Of a DNA stretch of 64,000 nucleotides, positions 9,770-24,362 are shown in pieces. Source of the DNA: Candidatus Nanopelagicales bacterium. GTDB lineage: Bacteria > Actinomycetota > Actinomycetes > S36-B12 > JBBRLC01. Positions within the stretch are counted from its first letter, which is position 1, and every line of letters starts with the position of its first letter. The translations under genes and the position numbers were made by a program. The stretch spans positions 629 through 64,628 of the forward strand of contig JBBRTC010000001.1 of NCBI GenBank assembly GCA_038244765.1, given 5' to 3'. The notes beneath the pieces were generated by a model, which worked only from the letters and a program-made list of their open reading frames with translations, was not told where the DNA came from and made no database searches.

Positions 9770-11358
9770 GCGCGAGCGTAACCGGCACGACGCCGCTGCT
9801 GCGTACTTCTCTCAAACACGATGGCCGTCTCATTGCGCCGTGGATCGTATTGGCGACGGCCCTTTCCGCTTCCTCGGTATTGGTTTATCCAAGTGTCTTT
9901 CCCACCGCGCAGGATCGGGCCGGCCTGGCTGCGGCCATCGGCGCGAATCCGGCGCTCGGTCTGATTTTTGGACCCGCCTCCAACTTGACGACCGTTGACG
10001 GCTTCAATGCCTGGCGCAGCCTCGCGCTCGGCGGCTTTCTGGCTGCGCTGATGTCGATCTTCACCGTGACCCGCGCGACCCGCGGACAAGAGGATTCCGG
10101 CCAGGCCGAGTTGCTCGCCTCGGGAGTCCTCGGCCGATCGAGCCGCCTGCTGACCGCCGTCGCCATGGGCGTCATCGGCTCCCTCGTACTCGGCATCGTC
10201 GCCGGGTTCGTCACTGTCGTGTTCGGGGGCGGTGCGGAGTCGTCGCTTCTGCTCGGGGCGACATTTACCGCCACCGGTTGGATGTTCGCTGCCTTCGCGG
10301 CTGTCACTGTGCAACTCGGCTCCGACGCACGTACTGCCAACTCGATGGCGATCGGCCTGCTCGGGGTGCTATTCCTGCTGCGCGGATTCTTGTACTCAAT
10401 CGGAGCACCGGCTTGGACCTCGTGGGCCAACCCATTGGGTTGGATGACCGAGACCAGGCCAGCGTCCGGGAACCATTGGGGGCCGCTCCTACCCGCGGTC
10501 GCACTCGCCGGGATCGTCCTCGCCATCGCGTTCAAGTCGCAGGCTCACCGCGACTTCGGCCAGGGGGCGATCGCGCCCGGACCTGGCCCGGCGCGCGGCG
10601 GCAACCCCAGTCCGTTACGGCTCGCCCTCCGGTTGAACCGCGGGTCGTTCACAACGTGGACCGTGGCATTCGTCGCTCTCGGCCTCGTTTTCGGATACTT
10701 CACGACGTCGGTAACCACGATCCTCGGGGCGAACAGTGGCGTCGCTCATTTCCTCGCTTCCGGTGCGGTTACGCCAGCGCAGTTAACTGGCGCATTTCTC
10801 GTCACCGTGCTCGCCTTGGTCGGGATCGTGGCCTCGATCTCGGGCGTCCAAGTGATGCTCAAGGTTCGCTCGGAGGAGATGGAGGATCGCGTTGAACCGG
10901 TCCTCGCCACCGCCATTAGCCGTAGACGGTATTACGCGAGCAACGTCGTCGTCGCTCTTGGCAGCCCCGCGATCTATGTACTCCTCGCCGGCACCCTCAT
11001 CGCGCTAATTGCGTCGCATGCCGACCTCGGCGTCAGCTTCGGCGGGGTGCTGCGACAAGTGCTGGCCACTGTGCCAGCTGTCTGGACCGTCGTCGCTATG
11101 TCGGTGACCGTGATCGGTGCCCGCCCACATTTCCGACTTGTCGCATGGATTGGTGTCCTAGCGTCCTTTGTCCTCACCCTGCTTGGCCCAACCTTCGGCC
11201 TGCCCAATTGGATCCTTGGGATCAGCCCTTACTGGCATGTGCCGAACACGACGGCACCCGTTCACGCCAACACAGGCCTGCTGTGGATCTCGTTCGTGAC
11301 AGCGCTGTTCCTCGTCGTCGGCTTTGCCGGCTTCGGTCGCCGCGACGTGGCGCGGTAA
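9766..11358 (+). CDS. ABC-2 type exporter permease (about 12 TM)
   Basis: GTGA overlap with the upstream ATPase gene. Long, highly hydrophobic protein. Confidence 0.75.
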   Translation: MSASVTGTTPLLRTSLKHDGRLIAPWIVLATALSASSVLVYPSVFPTAQDRAGLAAAIGANPALGLIFGPASNLTTVDGFNAWRSLALGGFLAALMSIFTVTRATRGQEDSGQAELLASGVLGRSSRLLTAVAMGVIGSLVLGIVAGFVTVVFGGGAESSLLLGATFTATGWMFAAFAAVTVQLGSDARTANSMAIGLLGVLFLLRGFLYSIGAPAWTSWANPLGWMTETRPASGNHWGPLLPAVALAGIVLAIAFKSQAHRDFGQGAIAPGPGPARGGNPSPLRLALRLNRGSFTTWTVAFVALGLVFGYFTTSVTTILGANSGVAHFLASGAVTPAQLTGAFLVTVLALVGIVASISGVQVMLKVRSEEMEDRVEPVLATAISRRRYYASNVVVALGSPAIYVLLAGTLIALIASHADLGVSFGGVLRQVLATVPAVWTVVAMSVTVIGARPHFRLVAWIGVLASFVLTLLGPTFGLPNWILGISPYWHVPNTTAPVHANTGLLWISFVTALFLVVGFAGFGRRDVAR

Positions 11359-15721: not shown

Positions 15722-15833
15722 AACATGCGCCTCCCTCCCCCTTTGGCGCACCTCCAGGTAGTGGCCCCGAGATCCCCCTCTCGGGGCTTCCTGGCGTCTA
15801 GGACCTCTCCCTCACCAGGAAACGAGGGGTTTA
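15722..15833 (+). ncRNA. candidate 6C-type small RNA (two hairpins with C-rich loops plus a terminal hairpin)
   Basis: Hairpin 1: stem 15726-15731/15745-15750, loop UCCCUCCCCCUUU. Hairpin 2: 9-10 bp stem 15763-15772/15779-15788, loop UCCCCC. A third hairpin CCCUC-N10-GAGGG is followed by GUUU at 15809-15833. All lie in the 360-nt ftsE-prfB gap. Ends are approximate. Confidence 0.45.
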
Positions 15834-16937
15834 CGACTGCTGTTGGCGTCGCCAGCGGATGCCGCTCTCAATGAAGTCGTCGATCTCGCCGTCGAGTACG
15901 GCCGTGGTGTTGCCGGTCTCATATTCGGTGCGCAGGTCCTTGACCATCTGGTACGGATGCAGGACGTAGGACCTCATCTGGTTGCCCCACGAGCCGGAGT
16001 TGTCGCCCTTGAGGGCATCCATCTTTTCACGATCTTCCTGACGCTTGCGTTCCAACAACTTCGCCTGCAGCACGGCCATCGCGGTTGCCTTGTTCTGCAG
16101 CTGTGAGCGTTCGTTTTGGCAGGACACGACGATCCCAGTCGGAATGTGAGTGAGGCGTACGGCGGAGTCAGTCGTGTTGACGCCTTGGCCGCCAGGTCCG
16201 CTCGATCGATAGACGTCGACTCGCAAATCGTCCTCGGGGATCTCGATTGAGTCGGTCTGCTCGACAACCGGGATCACTTCGACACCGGCGAACGATGTCT
16301 GACGTCGACCCTGATTGTCGAAGGGGGAGATACGTACGAGCCGATGGGTGCCTTGCTCAATCGACAGAGTTCCATACGCGTACGGCGCCTTGACTGCGAA
16401 CGTGGCCGACTTGATCCCGGCCTCCTCTGCCCACGACGTTTCGTAGACCTCAAACTTCCAGTTATGACGCTCGCAGTATCGCGTGTACATGCGGAGGAGC
16501 ATCTCGGCCCAGTCCGCGGCATCCACCCCGCCTGCCTCCGAGCGAATGGTCATGAGGGCTTCGCGAGCGTCGTACTCGCCCGACAACAGCGTTCGGACTT
16601 CGAGTTCGCCGATCGACTTGGTCATCGCTTCGAGCTCTCGCTCAGCCTCGGCGGTGCTGTCCGCGTCGCCTTCGGCCTCAGCCAGTTCAAAAAGAACGCC
16701 GAGGTCGTCGAGACGAGATCGCAGTGTGCGTACTCGCGCGGATTCAGACTGAAGAAACGACAATCGCGACGTGATTGTTTGCGCTTTTGCCTGGTCGTCC
16801 CACAAGTCGGGCGCCGATGCTTGCACCTCAAGGTCGGCGATGTCGCGCTCCATTTGAGGTACGTCGAGCACCGTTTCCACACTGCTCAGGGTGGAATCCA
16901 GGGCCTTGAGGGCTTCTGAGTATTCGATCGTCGACAC
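15831..16937 (-). CDS. prfB: peptide chain release factor 2
   Basis: SPF ([15 protein letters not shown]) and GGQ ([12 protein letters not shown]) motifs. One continuous frame with no internal frameshift site. GTG start at 16937 ([11 protein letters not shown]). Confidence 0.95.
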
Positions 16938-16985
16938 GAGTCGCAGGGTAGTGGGCAAGCCGAGCTCGAGTCGGGCGTGGGCGCG
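16800..16985. repeat. copy A of a diverged direct repeat (functional prfB 5' end plus upstream region)
   Basis: Aligns by eye with 19478-19665. A 32-nt perfect core, 16831-16862, equals 19509-19540. The flanks are about 80% identical. Confidence 0.8.
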
Positions 16986-17214
16986 GATTGTCGTCGTGAC
17001 TTCGCACCTCGGGATTAGCAGGAATTGCCGCTGATGCAGGACTAGGCTCGGCGTCAACTTCCCCAGCAACTGACGCGATGGAGCGCTCGTCGAGGCTGCC
17101 AGCGACGACCACCCGGTTGCCCCTGGCTGTTGCGTTGGGTTCACCGCCTCCACGGCGTGGCCACCTCACCTGTGGAATCCCTGGAAACCCGGTCAGAATT
17201 CTGAGGAACGATTC

Positions 17215-19452
17215 GTGAAACATCGCAGACCCAAGCACCGTACGAGGCAATTGCTCTTGACAGGTGTCGTGATTGCGTCGGCCACGCTGGCATTGCAAAC
17301 CATCGCGCGGGGAGTCACGCCGGCCCCTTCTGGACCCAGCACAGTCAGCCCGATCAAGCACGTGTTCATCATCATGGAAGAGAACACGAGTTGGTCTTCG
17401 GTGAAGGGCCGGTCGGCGTATTCGTACGTGAACAAGACCCTCCTGCCGAACTACGCCCACACAGAGAACTACGTCACGCACAACCATCCGAGCCTGCCCA
17501 ACTACGTATCGCTCGAAGCCGGTGACAACCTCGGAATGACCACTGGTTCCTACCTTCCTTCGGACCACAGCCTTGCCACCACCAGCCACCTCACCACCCA
17601 ACTCAACGACGCCGGTATCTCGTGGAAGTACTACGCCGAGAATCTGCCCGGTGGCGGGACGACCTGCAACACCAGCGACCCTGGTACGCCGTACTCGCAG
17701 GACCACAATCCCTTCACCTACTTCGATGACGTAAAGAACAACGCGCCGTACTGCATTGCACACGAGCGCCCATTCTCAGAACTGCTGGCTAGTCCCAGCA
17801 CTATCCCGCAGTACTCCTTCATCGTCCCGAACGACTACAACCAGGGCGAGAAGTCGAACTCAACCTGCAAGGCGTGCCAGGCCGACGCGTTCCTCAAGAC
17901 GACGGTCCCGGCGATCCAGGCAACCCCCGCCTACGCCGACGGCGGCCTGATCTTGGTGCTGTGGGATGAGGCCGGGATCTCGGCTGACCCAGACATCACG
18001 CCGAGTGGCTTGATCGCGATCTCCCCCCTAGCCAAGCGGGGTTACGCAGGGAACGCCGTCTACAGCCACGGTTCAACGTTGCGCTCGGTCCAAGAGATTT
18101 TCGGCGTCGGACCTCTCCTTGGCTCAGCAGCAACGGCGACAGACCTCTCGGACTTGTTCACCGTGCCACTTGTCGACCCCGGCTCTGTCGTCCCCCCGGT
18201 TGCGTCGTTCACAGCGACAACGACCTACGGTCTGGCCCCTCTGTCGGTGAGCCTCACCGACACGTCCACGGGGACACCAACGTCGTGGGTGTGGGACTTC
18301 GGTGATGGGTCACCCACCGAGACCACCCAGAACCCCAACCACACTTTCACTACGTTGGGGGCCCACACCGTGACGTTGACCGCCAGCAATGCTGGCGGAC
18401 CCTCCAGCACCACCAGCACGATCACGGTGAACCCGGTCGTGACGACTGCGCCGGTGGCGTCGTTCACTGGCACGCCACTCATCGGTACGCCGCCCTTGAC
18501 AGTCAGTTTCACCGACACATCTACCGGGGTACCAACGTCGTGGGCCTGGGACTTCGGTGACGCCACCGGTTCGACGTTGCAGAACCCCAGTCATGCTTTT
18601 GCCGCTGCCGGGATCTACACGGTTACGTTGACCGCCAGCAACGCCAGCGGCCCATCAACACCGGTGGCGGCCACCATCACCGTCAATCCGGTGGTCGTAT
18701 CCGCACCGGTGGCGTCATTCACCGCGGCCACGACGACGGGCTCTGTGCCGTTGGCCGTGGCGTTCGCTGACACCTCGACCGGGGTACCCACGTCGTGGGT
18801 TTGGGATTTCGGCGATGGGACTAGCTCGACTTCGCAGAACCCCAGTCACACCTTTACCGCTCAAGGGACGTATACGGTCGCTATGACCGCTAGCAATAGT
18901 GGCGGCCCATCAACGCCTGTTACCACCACCATCACCGTCACCCCGGTGGTCGTGACAGCACCGTGGTCGCTGCGCATCAACACGGGCGGGGCGACCCTCG
19001 GGGGCAGTTGGACAGGTGACCTCTCGCCCACCTCGGCCTACGGCAACGCATTCGCTGCTAAAACGTGGACGGTAAGCGCTTCCTCGTCGATCACAACGAC
19101 TGACCCGAGCATCCCGGCCGGGACGCCTGCCTCGATCTTCCAGTCCGCTCGGTACGACGGAAGTGCTGGCGCGAACATGACCTATACCGTGCCAGTGCCT
19201 CAAACGGGGCAGTACGTCGTACGTCTTTACTTTGCCGAGTATTCCTTCACCGCCGTCGGGAAACGCAAGTTCAGCGTCGCCGTCAACGGCACGAACGTTC
19301 TCACAAACTTCGACATCTTCGCGGCAGCAGGCGGCAACGCGCGAGGCATCGCGCGAACCTTCACGGTCAGCGCAACTGGGTCGATCGTGATTGGCTTCAC
19401 GCGCGGCAACGAGAACCCTGTCATCCAGGGCATTGAAGTCGTCGAACAGTGA
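17215..19452 (+). CDS. secreted multidomain protein: phosphoesterase-family (acid phosphatase/PLC-like) domain + 3 PKD domains + C-terminal malectin-like carbohydrate-binding domain
   Basis: Signal peptide. IKHVFIIMEEN and HPSLPNYVSLEAG are phosphoesterase-like motifs. Three ~85-aa repeats carry WxWDFGDG...NPxHxF (PKD). The C-terminus LRINTGG...RYD...YVVRLYFAE...FSVAVNG...F is malectin-like. GTG start with GAGGAA upstream. Confidence 0.8.
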   Translation: MKHRRPKHRTRQLLLTGVVIASATLALQTIARGVTPAPSGPSTVSPIKHVFIIMEENTSWSSVKGRSAYSYVNKTLLPNYAHTENYVTHNHPSLPNYVSLEAGDNLGMTTGSYLPSDHSLATTSHLTTQLNDAGISWKYYAENLPGGGTTCNTSDPGTPYSQDHNPFTYFDDVKNNAPYCIAHERPFSELLASPSTIPQYSFIVPNDYNQGEKSNSTCKACQADAFLKTTVPAIQATPAYADGGLILVLWDEAGISADPDITPSGLIAISPLAKRGYAGNAVYSHGSTLRSVQEIFGVGPLLGSAATATDLSDLFTVPLVDPGSVVPPVASFTATTTYGLAPLSVSLTDTSTGTPTSWVWDFGDGSPTETTQNPNHTFTTLGAHTVTLTASNAGGPSSTTSTITVNPVVTTAPVASFTGTPLIGTPPLTVSFTDTSTGVPTSWAWDFGDATGSTLQNPSHAFAAAGIYTVTLTASNASGPSTPVAATITVNPVVVSAPVASFTAATTTGSVPLAVAFADTSTGVPTSWVWDFGDGTSSTSQNPSHTFTAQGTYTVAMTASNSGGPSTPVTTTITVTPVVVTAPWSLRINTGGATLGGSWTGDLSPTSAYGNAFAAKTWTVSASSSITTTDPSIPAGTPASIFQSARYDGSAGANMTYTVPVPQTGQYVVRLYFAEYSFTAVGKRKFSVAVNGTNVLTNFDIFAAAGGNARGIARTFTVSATGSIVIGFTRGNENPVIQGIEVVEQ
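18196..18960 (+). repeat. three tandem 255-bp coding repeats (PKD domains)
   Basis: Units start at 18196, 18451 and 18706, each opening with ccg-gt(t/g)-gcg-tc(g/a)-ttc (PVASF). Confidence 0.85.
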
Positions 19453-19477
19453 CGCACCGGCCACCCATGCGCTCGGA

Positions 19478-19615
19478 CGCAAGGTCGAGGGCTGACTTCT
19501 GCACCCTGAGGTCGGCGATGTCGCGCTCCATTTGAGGTACCTCCAGCATGGTTTCCCTCCGGCTCAGCGTGGAAACCAGGGCGTTGAGGGCTCCGGCGTA
19601 CTCGATCATCGACAC
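19478..19615 (-). pseudogene. prfB 5' fragment (duplicated remnant, about 45 codons of RF2 similarity)
   Basis: [45 protein letters not shown] compares with genuine RF2 [46 protein letters not shown]. There is no RF2 body downstream. Confidence 0.7.
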
Positions 19616-19665
19616 GAGTCACAGGGCAGTTGGCTAGTTGAGCGCGAGGCGGGCATGGGCCTCGG
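19478..19665. repeat. copy B of the diverged direct repeat (prfB-like fragment plus the true 3' end of the tadE-like gene)
   Basis: See copy A. The right end overlaps the last ~30 nt of CDS 19634-20146. Confidence 0.8.
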
Positions 19666-20146
19666 CGATGATATCGACACCGTCGGATGCCGTCAGGTCG
19701 GCAAGCACCGACATAAACGGCGGCTTGGACCGCGCCTTGAATACGACGACAACGGAATCGCCATCGCTTCGCACGGAGATGACTTGGAAATGCGAGAACA
19801 CGGTCGCCAGTCGGACATCCTTGACGTAACGCAGCACTCGGGTGCTGACCTGATTGCGATCGAGCGGCAGAACGTCGACACCATCGCTCGTGTGCGTCGT
19901 CTGGCCGCCGTACACCGCAGCGAGGTCGACGGCCTGGGCCGCAGCGAGAGCAGCAGCGTCAGCGGCGTCGTTGAGCGCGCGACGGCTTAGCCACAATGAC
20001 GACACGTCGGTGACGACAGCGATGAGAGCGACCGTGATCGCGACCATGCCAAGGGCGAGGAGCATGACTGTGCCGCTCTCCCCAGAACGGCGAGCTGCCG
20101 AGCCGCAAATCCGAGTGCGGACTTCATCGGCGAGCCGGGGCGTCAT
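19634..20146 (-). CDS. TadE-like pilus assembly protein (Rv3654c family)
   Basis: N-terminal GESGTVMLLALGMVAITVALIAVV hydrophobic segment followed by AADAAALAAAQ. ATGA overlap with the upstream gene. Confidence 0.7.
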   Translation of the reverse strand: MTPRLADEVRTRICGSAARRSGESGTVMLLALGMVAITVALIAVVTDVSSLWLSRRALNDAADAAALAAAQAVDLAAVYGGQTTHTSDGVDVLPLDRNQVSTRVLRYVKDVRLATVFSHFQVISVRSDGDSVVVVFKARSKPPFMSVLADLTASDGVDIIAEAHARLALN

Positions 20147-20592
20147 TGCGGCTCGCGGTAGGTGTCGACGACCTCCACGTGGTCCGCGCTCACCGGAATG
20201 GCGAGGTCGGTTCCTGCACTGAGGTTCTGTGGCAGGAACGGTAGCGGAACAGAAAGGCTCAGCGAGACCTCGACGCGCGATCCCGGTGTCAAGCACGGGC
20301 CACCAGCACATCGCAGGTGAAGGCCGCCAGCGGGAAGTTCGAGGCCGTGGTCGGCGAGCGCAATTTCCGCAGCGGAAAGTGCACGCTGTCGACCCTCCAC
20401 GTCAGATCCCGACGTCGCATATACACGGCCGGCTTCCCGGACTGCCGTCGTCACGGCGTACGCCGCGGACTGAACTCTCGCGACCGCCATCACCATGTAG
20501 ATCATCGGAACCAAGACAAGGAGCGCGAGCGCCACAAATTCGACGAGCGCCGAACCCTCATCATCTTGGTTGCTGCGACGGCGTGCATGCAT
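20143..20592 (-). CDS. TadE family pilus assembly protein / pseudopilin
   Basis: DDEGSALVEFVALALLVLVPMIYMVMAV is a TadE-type N-terminus. Confidence 0.7.
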   Translation of the reverse strand: MHARRRSNQDDEGSALVEFVALALLVLVPMIYMVMAVARVQSAAYAVTTAVREAGRVYATSGSDVEGRQRALSAAEIALADHGLELPAGGLHLRCAGGPCLTPGSRVEVSLSLSVPLPFLPQNLSAGTDLAIPVSADHVEVVDTYREPQ

Positions 20593-20996
20593 CAGCCCTC
20601 CTCCACGGCATGCCCGGTGACCTCAAGGGTTTCCGGGCCGAGGAGACCCAGCAACGGGAGTCGACCGCGAACTTCGATCGTCACAACGATCACACCACCG
20701 CGTGGCTCGCTGTGGGCGGTGACCGAATCCACTACCGAACCGGCGAGGTTGTTGGCGAGGACCTCCCTCGTTTTGGCCACGCCGTCTTGCGGACCTCGAT
20801 CTGCCGCCGCCGCGACCCTCGCACCTTCGGCCGCAGCTGCTATCAAGGTCGTCCGGATGTGGAACGTCAACGCAAGTTGTATGACCGCGAGCACCACCAA
20901 CAAGATCAGCGGTGCGACGAGGACAAACTCGACGGGCGCAGATCCGTTGTCGCTGCGGCGCAATCGCCTATCGGTTCGTGACTGAATCGAAGGCAC
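20592..20996 (-). CDS. TadE family pilus assembly protein / pseudopilin
   Basis: DNGSAPVEFVLVAPLILLVVLAVIQLAL is a TadE-type N-terminus. Confidence 0.7.
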   Translation of the reverse strand: MPSIQSRTDRRLRRSDNGSAPVEFVLVAPLILLVVLAVIQLALTFHIRTTLIAAAAEGARVAAAADRGPQDGVAKTREVLANNLAGSVVDSVTAHSEPRGGVIVVTIEVRGRLPLLGLLGPETLEVTGHAVEEG

Positions 20997-21207
20997 GGCG
21001 CAGAATCGAACTGAGTTGATCGTCGGCGATGACCCACAGCGCGGTCACTAGCCCGGCCGTCATGACGGTCACGAGGACCCAACCAGGGACGTCGCCCCGT
21101 TCGCGATCCGCCATGGTCGTAACCGTTTGCCAGCGGCGTACGAACGTCGTTGTGATGCGGTCGACCAAGCCTCGCCTTTCGCGCGACACTGAATATCGGT
21201 GCAACAT
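20968..21207 (-). CDS. small Flp/DUF4244-like putative pilin (atypical)
   Basis: Position matches Rv3656c between tadC and tadE. ERGDVPGWVLVTVMTAGLVTALWVI is the hydrophobic core. Start is uncertain; the ATG at 21207 has GGGGGAG upstream. Confidence 0.45.
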   Translation of the reverse strand: MLHRYSVSRERRGLVDRITTTFVRRWQTVTTMADRERGDVPGWVLVTVMTAGLVTALWVIADDQLSSILRRAFDSVTNR

Positions 21208-21250
21208 GTGCTCCCCCTTGATTTCGGCCACTACACCGGTGAAGTGACTC

Positions 21251-22195
21251 TTACGTCGAACCCAACGAAAGACCCCAAAACCCTGGAAATACAGCGATCA
21301 CGATGATCGTCGGCAAGATCAGAAATACCACAGGAATCAACATGGCGATCTCGCGCCGACCTGCACTGGCCAACAATTCTCGTACCCCATCAGCTCGGAC
21401 GTCGACTGCCTGCGCACGCAAAACCTCGGCCATCGGCGTTCCTCGTTCGACCGCCACGACCACGCCATCAACAAAGCGAGTGAGCGCGGGAAGTTCGATT
21501 CGCGTCGACATGGATCGCAGAGCGTCAACCAGGTTCACTCCCGTGCGAGTGAGCGCGACGCTGCTAGCAATTTCTTGGGCCAGGTCACCGTGACAGGTAC
21601 GCGCGATGCGCTCCAAAGCCGTGCCTGTCCCCTCGCCCGCGGCCACGGCGAAGGCAAGCAGTTCGGCGATCGTCGGTAACTCCACAGCCATGCGTCGATG
21701 TCGCCGCTTGATGTCAGCGGATAGCGACTGATCACGCCACAGGGCGGCGCCGATCGCGGTGCACAGCGACAAGATCAGCCACGGGGCGAATTGCACGCGA
21801 TACCCCGTCGCCACAGCGAGGAACGCGACGCCCATGGCAACGGCGAGGCCCGTCGCCGCTGCAATTACTTGCTCCACGCGGAAGTCTTCCGGCGATTGTC
21901 GGCGTCCTGCGCGGTCGAGTCGTCGGCGCAACGACTCGTTGCCACCGAGAAGGCCAGCGAGTTGACGGCCGGCGGCTTTGACTGATGGAGCAACGATGCG
22001 CTCGAGTGTCGGAAACGGCGTGCTCGCGGCGGTCCCATTGCGTCGATGACCGCTGAGATCGGACGCGCTTCCTAGGTACGGCGCAATCCGAGTGGGCAGG
22101 TCCGCGCGACGAAACAACAGGAGGTGGCGCGCGATAAGCAGGAGACCTGCGGCGGTTGCGGCCCCTAGGAGAGCACCGAGGGCGCCCGTGCTCAT
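21251..22195 (-). CDS. tadC: type II secretion system F family protein (TadC-like)
   Basis: Polytopic membrane protein. ATGA overlap with tadB. The long upstream extension of the ORF was rejected. Confidence 0.75.
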   Translation of the reverse strand: MSTGALGALLGAATAAGLLLIARHLLLFRRADLPTRIAPYLGSASDLSGHRRNGTAASTPFPTLERIVAPSVKAAGRQLAGLLGGNESLRRRLDRAGRRQSPEDFRVEQVIAAATGLAVAMGVAFLAVATGYRVQFAPWLILSLCTAIGAALWRDQSLSADIKRRHRRMAVELPTIAELLAFAVAAGEGTGTALERIARTCHGDLAQEIASSVALTRTGVNLVDALRSMSTRIELPALTRFVDGVVVAVERGTPMAEVLRAQAVDVRADGVRELLASAGRREIAMLIPVVFLILPTIIVIAVFPGFWGLSLGST

Positions 22196-23067
22196 GCGAG
22201 CACTCGTGGCTCTTGAGGTAGCCGCCCGATACGCAACATCAATCGATAGGCAACAAGGGTGACTCCGGCGCACACCAGCAACACGACGAATCCAGTGGGC
22301 GAGGAGTAGGCGCGAACGGCTTCGTGGCGAAGCGACAGCAGCACAAGGGTTACCCACGGGGCCGCAACGGCGAGGCGCGCGGCATTGACGGTCCAGCCTT
22401 GTCGAGTCTCCACTTCGGCACGGATGCGTGACTCTTCGCGAAGAAACGTCGACAACGTGCGCAGAAGTCGGCCGAGATCCGTCCCGCCGACTTGACGGGC
22501 GAGTCGCAACGCCTCGATGACGCGGTCGGCAACTGGATCAGCGAGGTCGGCCTTCAGTCGATCCAGTGAGTTCTCGAACCGCCCCGTAACTTGGTAGTCG
22601 GAGGCGAAGCGGGAAAACGCCGGGCGGAGCAGAAGCGGTCCGCGTGCAGCAAGTTCGGCAACACCCTCTGGCAGAGACATTCCCGCCCGTACGGCGGAGG
22701 CGAGATCGTCGATAACTTCTGGCCACGCCGCTCTCAAGTCGCGAGCCCGCTGATCGCGTTGACGCCGCAAGAGCGTGATGGGCGTCCATGCCGCCGCTGC
22801 GCCAAGGACAAGAGCAACCGCTGGCGACGCGCTGACGATGAGGGCGACCAAGGCACCCGAGAAACCCAGGCCAGCGCACGTACATCCCACTCGCAGGGGC
22901 GACAAGTCGGCGTGACCCGAGTCAGCCACCAACCTTGCCAACCGCCCGGGACGCTTGACGATCGCGAGCCCTGTTGCCGATCGCGACAGGGCTCGGGAGT
23001 CTTCGGTGAACGCGGACCCGATCAGAAGCGCACCGATCCCGACGACCAGCCCGAGAAGCACGCCCAT
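22192..23067 (-). CDS. tadB: type II secretion system F family protein (TadB-like)
   Basis: Polytopic membrane protein directly downstream of tadA. Confidence 0.75.
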   Translation of the reverse strand: MGVLLGLVVGIGALLIGSAFTEDSRALSRSATGLAIVKRPGRLARLVADSGHADLSPLRVGCTCAGLGFSGALVALIVSASPAVALVLGAAAAWTPITLLRRQRDQRARDLRAAWPEVIDDLASAVRAGMSLPEGVAELAARGPLLLRPAFSRFASDYQVTGRFENSLDRLKADLADPVADRVIEALRLARQVGGTDLGRLLRTLSTFLREESRIRAEVETRQGWTVNAARLAVAAPWVTLVLLSLRHEAVRAYSSPTGFVVLLVCAGVTLVAYRLMLRIGRLPQEPRVLA

Positions 23068-23069
23068 GG

Positions 23070-24362
23070 CTAGTTCGCCGTGCCCTCGAGTAGCGCAAGA
23101 AGGTCAATTCCGCAGGCGGCGAAGCGCTCTCGGTGAGGCGGAAATCCGTCCGCTCGACACAACTGCCCCTCGACCGTGCGAAAGACGTCTGCTGTCTCGA
23201 CCGCGCCAGATCCACCGTCTGACATTTCGGCCCGACCAGGAACCGCAACGATCTCACGCACGCGGCGACGCCCATCGTTGAGTGTCTCGGCATGAACGAC
23301 AAGGTCGATCGCAGTCGCCACCGTCGGTGTGACGAATTGTGAGGAAACGTTCGGACCAGCAAGCAGAGGCAGGGTGCACAACTTCGTGATCGCTTCGCGG
23401 GCCCCATTTGCGTGAATGCTGCACATTCCCGGCATCCCAGAATTGAGCGCAATCAACAGATCAAGGCTCTCCTGCTGGCGTACCTCGCCGACGATGAGCC
23501 GATTGGGTCGCATCCGTAGCGCTTCTTTGATCAACCTCCGAAGCGGAATCTCGCCCGTACCTTCGAGGCTGACCTGTCGGGTCTGCATCGCAACCCAGTC
23601 TGGGAGCTGGAGTTGAATCTCAAATACTTCCTCACAGGTGATGACACGTTCGGTGGGTGGTACGGCGTTGATCAAGCAATTGAGGAGGGTCGTCTTTCCG
23701 GCCTGCGTACCACCCGAGACGAGGATGTTGAGGCCCGCAATGACTGCGGCATCTAAGAATTGCGCCGAATGCAGGGAAAGAGTCCCCAGCGCGACCAAGT
23801 CGCTCAAGTTATGTGCCGGGGCGACGAACTTACGCACGTTCACCGCCCAGTGCTGGCGCGTTACGTCCGGGATCACCACATGAAGTCGAGATCCATCCGG
23901 GAGTACTGCATCGACAAACGGTTGGGACAAATCGACGCGACGGCCTGAGGTACTCAGCATTCGTTCGACCAGGTTTGCCACCTGTCCCGATCGGAGTACG
24001 ACATTGGTGAGTTCACTACGTCCGCGGCGCGCGACGAAGACGCGTCCAGGTTCGTTGATCCAGAGCTCCTCGACTTCCGGGTCGTCGAGAAAACGTTGAA
24101 GCGGTCCAAGCCCCCCCACGATGTCAACGACTTGCACGGTGATGCGGTCGAGTTCGTCCGCGATCCGGACCGGACCGCTCCAATTGCGGGCATAACCCGC
24201 CACGACGTCGGCGACGACTGAGGTGAGCTCAGCGGTGCTGGTCGGTCCGTGATCGGGACTATCGGCAAGCCGCGCACGGACTTCGTCCACAAGGGCGTCG
24301 ATGAAGTCCGCCTCTGGGTTCGAAGCGGGTCGCGCATCGGCGTACGCAAAAGCAGTGACCAT
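23070..24362 (-). CDS. tadA: TadA/CpaF-family secretion ATPase
   Basis: Walker A GGTQAGKTT, LIVGEVR, HANGAREA. VirB11/CpaF-like layout. Confidence 0.9.
   Translation of the reverse strand: MVTAFAYADARPASNPEADFIDALVDEVRARLADSPDHGPTSTAELTSVVADVVAGYARNWSGPVRIADELDRITVQVVDIVGGLGPLQRFLDDPEVEELWINEPGRVFVARRGRSELTNVVLRSGQVANLVERMLSTSGRRVDLSQPFVDAVLPDGSRLHVVIPDVTRQHWAVNVRKFVAPAHNLSDLVALGTLSLHSAQFLDAAVIAGLNILVSGGTQAGKTTLLNCLINAVPPTERVITCEEVFEIQLQLPDWVAMQTRQVSLEGTGEIPLRRLIKEALRMRPNRLIVGEVRQQESLDLLIALNSGMPGMCSIHANGAREAITKLCTLPLLAGPNVSSQFVTPTVATAIDLVVHAETLNDGRRRVREIVAVPGRAEMSDGGSGAVETADVFRTVEGQLCRADGFPPHRERFAACGIDLLALLEGTAN

Follow-up and report, generated by a model that had tools for sequence, protein, structure and literature searches.

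Two diverged direct copies of the 5′ end of prfB, the gene for release factor 2 (RF2), bracket a 2.5-kb segment with a single gene in a stretch of 64,000 nucleotides (nt) from contig JBBRTC010000001.1 of a Candidatus Nanopelagicales bacterium (this whole stretch is hereafter called the window). Copy A is joined to the body of prfB and copy B to the last gene of a neighboring Tad pilus operon. The arrangement is best read as one insertion of the segment into the prfB 5′ region with a target duplication of ~180 bp, from which copy A emerged as the working 5′ end and copy B as a relic, and we place the probability of this reading at about 0.8.

A repeat search of the window identified the two copies as a direct repeat of 177 nt with 80% identity and a spacing of 2678 nt (coordinates in Table 1). 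The initial annotation had described a diverged direct duplication of ~185 bp and proposed a blastn comparison of the two regions as a check; that alignment is ungapped and highly significant (142/177 identities, E 2e-46) and thus bears out the duplication at a slightly shorter length. Homology may extend 3 to 4 nt beyond 19484, to about 19481, and the duplication measures 177 to 180 bp. No third copy was found by blastn in the 64-kb window. The perfect 32-nt core that had been noted within the repeat is also present; when the same 35 mismatches are shuffled, runs of at least 32 nt appear in 1.4% of shuffles. Repeat homology continues past both ends of this core, by 25 nt in one direction and 120 nt in the other. 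At its distal end, copy A contains 27 nt (16956–16982) that read AHARLELGL, as compared to AHARLALN followed by the stop codon at the true end of the Tad gene. This remnant has drifted and lost its stop codon, while the true Tad C terminus is kept in copy B. The gene concerned, the last of the Tad operon (19634–20311, minus strand), matches PF13400 (Tad, TadE/G-like), such that the homology proposed between its end and copy A stands, while its earlier designation as "tadE-like" is replaced by PF13400 rather than TadE proper.

The GTG at 16937 in copy A, previously proposed as the working prfB start, opens a full-length 368-amino acid product with PCRF and RF-1 domains. The neighborhood likewise agrees with RF2, for which the order prfB-ftsE-ftsX-smpB is conserved; the protein is 92 to 93% identical to RF2 of the nearest metagenome relatives, and ftsE, ftsX, and an M23 peptidase gene lie downstream as they do in those relatives. 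A programmed +1 frameshift near codon 26 of prfB is common in bacteria, although RF2 membership does not depend on it; none is present here, prfB being a single uninterrupted 368-codon open reading frame (ORF), as in the relatives. Upstream of the true GTG, the prfB frame also continues without a stop for 72 codons (16938–17153, minus strand), reaching another GTG at 17153 and giving a 440-amino acid ORF. These additional codons fall in the flank of the insert and have no counterpart in the 368-amino acid proteins of relatives. The extension is spurious, and gene callers may over-extend prfB at this locus. In copy B, the prfB-like ORF of 64 codons reported earlier is recovered as well, with 60% identity to the RF2 N terminus (tblastn, E 2.6e-14). 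Its homology is limited to codons 1 to 44, and its last ~20 codons are unrelated and enter the antisense strand of the inserted gene's 3′ end. Protein similarity past codon 45 was considered and set aside as coincidental, as it overlaps the inserted gene's own stop codon. A Pfam search with the 64-codon ORF returned no match, and this ORF should not be annotated as a gene.

Comparison with relatives places the insertion in a formerly continuous junction. A search of species-representative genomes returned distant relatives only (RF2 ≤78% identical), and a protein search yielded closer metagenome relatives, with RF2 90 to 93% identical, on 17 contigs. In all 17 of these sister-clade contigs a gene ends 25 to 31 nt before prfB with no insert between, and wherever that gene is complete on the contig it is the PF13400 Tad gene. 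The tad operon also directly precedes prfB in seven more distant genomes. The contiguity of tad and prfB that the initial annotation suggested looking for in relatives is therefore found, as expected from its proposal of an ancestral adjacency and a later insertion. The shared gene order across the 17 contigs is glutamate dehydrogenase, tadA, tadB, tadC, a small ORF, two TadE-like genes, PF13400 Tad, prfB, ftsE, ftsX, M23 peptidase, and smpB. The window is collinear with one related locus (L088) over ~18 kb at 72 to 81% nucleotide identity, and the single break in this collinearity is the junction itself, 2.7 kb in the window versus 91 nt in L088. A second prfB 5′ end was found in none of 95 related loci, and a metagenome scan with the TadG-like protein confirmed no relative.

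To place the duplication in time, both copies were aligned with two outgroup clades. The spacer between the Tad stop codon and the prfB GTG is 18 nt in both window copies, as compared to 31 and 25 nt in the outgroups, and parsimony-informative sites in the first 132 nt of prfB number nine for a grouping of A with B, versus zero and three for the alternatives. On this sequence evidence, copies A and B are sisters and the duplication arose within this lineage after its split from the sampled relatives. When polarized by outgroup, the differences between the copies fall unevenly, with 20 on the B branch, nine on the A branch, and six ambiguous; three-taxon branch lengths are 12, 23, and 24. The A branch carries four synonymous changes and one nonsynonymous change, for a ratio of nonsynonymous to synonymous rates (dN/dS) of 0.08, close to that of full-length prfB relative to L088 (0.072). 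In contrast, the B branch carries three synonymous and nine nonsynonymous changes (dN/dS 0.94), and copy B has accumulated about 13% substitutions and no insertion or deletion (indel). These estimates indicate purifying selection on copy A, while the prfB part of copy B has the relaxed selection and truncated homology of a pseudogene fragment and is evidently a neutrally decaying relic. Before correction, the A branch shows a synonymous divergence of 0.143 since duplication, as compared to 0.61 for the window versus L088. With Jukes-Cantor correction, the event lies roughly a quarter of the way back to the L088 split, a figure with wide error since it depends on four synonymous changes; the event is ancient and not recent.

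The duplicated unit also includes what appears to be the prfB promoter. The 30 nt upstream of the start codon were compared among 81 distinct actinobacterial prfB loci (drawn from L001 to L099), including Streptomyces, Micromonospora, and several lineages of metagenome-assembled genomes. A TANNNT hexamer lies 6 to 9 nt upstream of the start in 81/81 loci, as compared to 0.8% at random positions, while a Shine-Dalgarno-like tetramer was seen in seven of the 81. Neither window copy has a Shine-Dalgarno motif. Leaderless genes are prevalent in Actinobacteria, and the hexamer follows the −10 consensus. Given the universal hexamer and the rarity of Shine-Dalgarno-like tetramers, prfB is probably leaderless in the window and across the examined actinobacterial loci; a literature search on leaderless prfB returned nothing specific. 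It is plausible that the entire core promoter lay within the 45 duplicated nt upstream of the start, which would explain how copy A sustains an essential prfB. In copy B the invariant A of the hexamer is mutated to G (TACCCT to TGCCCT), and the promoter of this copy is for that reason probably dead. The initial annotation had raised the prospect that the copy B promoter, if active, drives transcription antisense into the inserted gene, a suggestion that this mutation disfavors. Read-through from the tad operon is the likelier source of any such antisense transcription, because a scan found no terminator-like site between the convergent genes. The sole sigma-70-type promoter-like match in the region (CTGACG, 17 nt, TATCAT; 19668–19696, minus strand) falls within the Tad gene, immediately before copy B on the upstream side, and is probably fortuitous, since its TATCAT hexamer is not conserved in the sister clade.

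Together, these observations suggest the following course of events. In the ancestor, the Tad pilus operon would have been followed directly by prfB. A 2.5-kb segment with a phosphoesterase-PKD-malectin gene would then have entered prfB after about codon 45, with ~180 bp of target doubled on either side. The doubled stretch runs from the final 27 nt of the Tad gene across the 18-nt spacer and its −10 box into prfB, of which it includes the first 132 to 135 nt. Copy A, joined to the prfB body, would have retained all that is needed for prfB expression, with the −10 box 7 nt from the start, and copy B, joined to the Tad gene, would have preserved that gene's true end. Thereafter, the prfB part of copy B would have decayed neutrally and lost the key −10 base, while the Tad remnant in copy A diverged and its stop codon disappeared. 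Two candidate mechanisms could produce this outcome. A staggered double-strand break may have been filled in and a DNA fragment captured by end joining, or a replication template switch may have copied the gene and returned ~180 bp behind its departure point. A single event is the most economical account because the insert sits exactly between the two repeat units. The contrast between a selected copy A and an unselected copy B also supports the earlier proposal that the essential gene was rescued by duplication of its start and promoter. The rescue covers both neighbors, as the last nine codons of the Tad gene are kept intact as well.

Known processes resemble this structure in part. As in transposon target-site duplication, the inserted DNA is flanked by a direct repeat of the target, the outcome predicted when a staggered break is repaired. 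Typical transposon target duplications measure 2 to 14 bp, whereas here the duplication is ~180 bp and there are neither terminal inverted repeats nor a transposase domain. In a Campbell-type single crossover, the direct repeats are as long as the homologous fragment, and the gene stays functional if that fragment includes promoter and start. Such a crossover would need a circular donor joining the cargo to a tad-prfB fragment, and no trace of a donor or of vector-like DNA was found. Template switching by microhomology-mediated break-induced replication or fork stalling and template switching (MMBIR/FoSTeS), and end joining by Ku/LigD in Actinobacteria, can insert templated or captured DNA with flanking duplications of tens to hundreds of bp. 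The present case is similar to these in its cargo without mobility genes, its native composition, and its flanking duplication.

Alternatively, the second prfB 5′ end may have arrived from a related donor on an integrative element, or on circular DNA that recombined by a single crossover, with the core as crossover site and the integrase and other parts of the element deleted since. The perfect core amid ~80% identity and the diverged direct repeats around a cargo fit such an element, and the icd/icdC pair flanking e14 offers an analogy (PMC13626634). In that system (e14 and phage 21 in the icd gene of Escherichia coli), the insert is lost, and a hybrid gene formed, when the two copies recombine (PMC13626634; Hill et al. 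1989 as cited there). Both cases feature an insertion in an important gene between diverged direct copies of a gene end, with one working gene and one leftover fragment. However, the icd element carries a replacement end and an integrase and targets the 3′ end. In the window it is the 5′ end, promoter included, that occurs twice, and the lone ORF of the insert encodes a phosphoesterase, with neither an integrase nor another mobility gene beside it. Homology also extends to both sides of the core, where att-type replacement predicts it on one side only, and lineage-specific states common to the two copies argue for an in-situ duplication; the shared 18-nt spacer and nine synapomorphies would require a donor closer than the nearest known relatives. 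Moreover, the B branch is neutral (nine nonsynonymous, three synonymous changes) and not synonymous-rich as for two working orthologues. An integrative origin is thus considered unlikely. The structure could alternatively have formed in two steps, by tandem duplication of 180 bp at the tad-prfB junction and later insertion of the gene between the copies. A tandem duplicate would have been viable, since the 180-nt unit and 18-nt spacer keep the Tad stop codon in the prfB frame. Nonetheless, the insert separates the two units exactly where they meet and leaves no tandem joint behind, which is improbable for an independent second event, and a bare tandem duplicate occurs in none of the 95 related loci. 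Two steps are therefore very unlikely.

Copy B might instead have been co-opted, either with its 64-codon ORF as a small protein or with the 3′ end of the inserted-gene transcript acting antisense to prfB mRNA, selection holding the core identical. As predicted from the sequence, the mRNA of the inserted gene would end antisense to the first 130 nt of prfB mRNA, including 32 perfectly complementary bases, and through such pairing the amount of an essential translation factor would depend on how strongly the acquired gene is expressed. The core is longer than expected, copy B retains a start codon and an open frame, and the stretch from the stop codon of the inserted gene to the core has no terminator-like site, all consistent with co-option. 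The relic nonetheless evolves at a dN/dS of 0.94 and has a mutated −10 box, and RNA folding gives unexceptional values for either strand of copy B (z-scores +0.5 and +0.9), with no Rfam match. The structure is also seen in no relatives and so provides no conservation signal. Co-option of copy B is accordingly given little credence, and selection for the antisense pairing just as little. Finally, the arrangement could reflect a chimeric assembly joined at a shared k-mer, given that the nearest relatives found all come from metagenome assemblies, as the window itself may, and that assemblers can be misled by an exact repeat of 32 nt. Against this, each copy has homologous sequence to either side of the core, copy B passes without a break into the Tad gene and has pseudogene-type changes absent from prfB of all relatives, and a chimera would still need an organism with a prfB fragment beside the inserted gene. 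An assembly artifact is hardly credible.

Several points weigh against insertion with target duplication in a single event. The perfect core (P 0.014) is not accounted for by conservation, and gene conversion has to be assumed. The core is not generally conserved, as the two outgroups are ~69% identical there in an alignment read by eye. The core is most simply read as a small patch of gene conversion between the copies; chance ranks next, and selection on the relic is a distant third. The selection estimates derive from few changes, five on branch A and 12 on branch B, and 23 substitutions without any indel are somewhat unexpected in a neutral 177-nt relic. Leaderless transcription of prfB is deduced solely from sequence. 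The source of the insert was not traced, leaving microhomology at the junctions without a reference, and the searches yielded no genome near enough to bracket the event, DNA identity to the nearest relatives being only ~80%.

Table 1. Features of the tad-prfB region, in window coordinates
Feature	Position	Strand	Description
prfB (release factor 2)	15831–16937	−	368 amino acids; GTG start at 16937; Pfam PCRF 7e-57, RF-1 4.9e-41
Copy A	16806–16982	−	Tad-gene relic of 27 nt (16956–16982), 18-nt spacer with −10 box, working prfB codons 1–44
Perfect core, copy A	16831–16862	−	prfB codons 26–36
−10-like hexamer TACCCT, copy A	16945–16950	−	7 nt upstream of prfB GTG; putative leaderless promoter
Inserted segment	16983–19483	+	2,501 bp; 232-nt 5′ flank with GAGGAA ribosome-binding site, one gene, 31-nt 3′ flank
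Inserted gene	17215–19452	+	745 amino acids; N-terminal signal-like segment, phosphoesterase PF04185, three PKD and malectin domains (Pfam)
64-codon ORF of copy B	19421–19615	−	Reads MSMIEYAGALNALVSTLS..; RF2 N-terminal relic and ~20 unrelated codons
Copy B	19484–19660	−	True Tad-gene 3′ end (19634–19660), spacer, decaying relic of prfB codons 1–44
Perfect core, copy B	19509–19540	−	Located in blastn alignment
Mutated −10 hexamer TGCCCT, copy B	19623–19628	−	Invariant A changed to G
Tad/Flp pilus operon	19634–24362	−	TadA ATPase, two T2SSF membrane proteins, small ORF, two TadE-like proteins, TadG-like protein (Pfam)

The inserted gene probably encodes a phosphoesterase that is secreted or displayed on the cell surface, to judge from the signal-like segment and domains of the product. 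Its match to PF04185 (phospholipase C/acid phosphatase) scores 74.3 bits relative to a cut-off of 23 and spans profile positions 113 to 355 of 356; no solved structure matched the catalytic domain by sequence. As noted in the initial annotation, this is the only plus-strand gene in a block of minus-strand genes, although the block measures ~24 kb and not ~13 kb. No integrase or transposase gene was detected in the insert, the single ORF having Phosphoesterase, PKD, and Malectin domains only, and no terminal inverted repeats link 16983–17050 with 19420–19483. The GC profile, GC content at third codon positions (GC3, 0.77), and codon-usage distance (0.063) of the insert are all within the range of window genes. 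The comparison of GC and codon usage suggested earlier as a check thus does not mark the inserted gene as foreign, and composition neither supports nor dates a foreign origin. A PHO box in the 5′ flank of the insert was also considered and rejected, as the one GTTCACC there is unremarkable among 15 in the window.

No database record encoding exactly the inserted protein was found. Its best homologue (P0004) is 66% identical overall and 75% identical in the catalytic domain. The corresponding locus (L081, identical to L100, with L101 from the same organism) shows 75 to 78% nucleotide identity confined to the coding region; its flanks are unrelated and contain no prfB or tad genes, with PD40-repeat genes to one side and a small monooxygenase-like gene to the other. 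A tblastx comparison of L081 with the whole window returned noise only, and no link between the L081 organism and the sister clade was established. The inserted gene's divergence from this homologue nonetheless matches that of the window from the sister clade, and one sister-clade contig (L093) shares its sample of origin with the homologue's contig, on which grounds the gene could be a relocated native gene and not a foreign one. The three PKD domains (18196–18963) form a 255-nt tandem repeat with 69 to 75% nucleotide identity, and L081 encodes two PKD domains, indicating that domain number has changed since the genes diverged. The inserted gene is an ancient, fully ameliorated acquisition or relocation of a kind that composition-based island finders would miss.

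The tad-prfB junction also varies elsewhere. Unrelated genes occupy 2 to 7 kb between the tad operon and prfB in four distant relatives, L001 (6778–10001), L004 (3036–10001), L072 (8049–9983), and L073 (6241–9989); from a reading of their translations alone, the products appear to be sigma-factor-like, NlpC/P60-like, and HNH-like. The prfB 5′ end is not duplicated in any of the four. The junction seems prone to insertions. In L099 (4967–11051), a relative with 83% RF2 identity, prfB comes immediately after glutamate dehydrogenase and the tad operon is missing altogether, showing that the operon is itself a variable block at the prfB position. In L043 (Micromonospora sp. CPCC 205556), the 44 nt immediately upstream of prfB (9941–9984) are repeated perfectly at 9887–9930, 54 nt further upstream. 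This is a separate and much younger duplication of the prfB upstream region.

The structure in the window is an old, lineage-specific scar. Although it does not represent a novel type of system, it illustrates with unusual clarity how a long target duplication can preserve an essential, probably leaderless gene together with its neighbor. It provides a natural example of an essential gene surviving a direct hit, with the target duplication leaving both neighbors with complete ends. At most 45 nt upstream of the prfB start derive from the original upstream sequence, amounting to a natural deletion experiment. If the flank of the insert adds no promoter, these 45 nt suffice for prfB expression, consistent with a −10 box 6 to 9 nt from the start. 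The direct repeats still permit precise loss of the insert by recombination, and the two copies display constrained and neutral evolution of the same 177 nt side by side.

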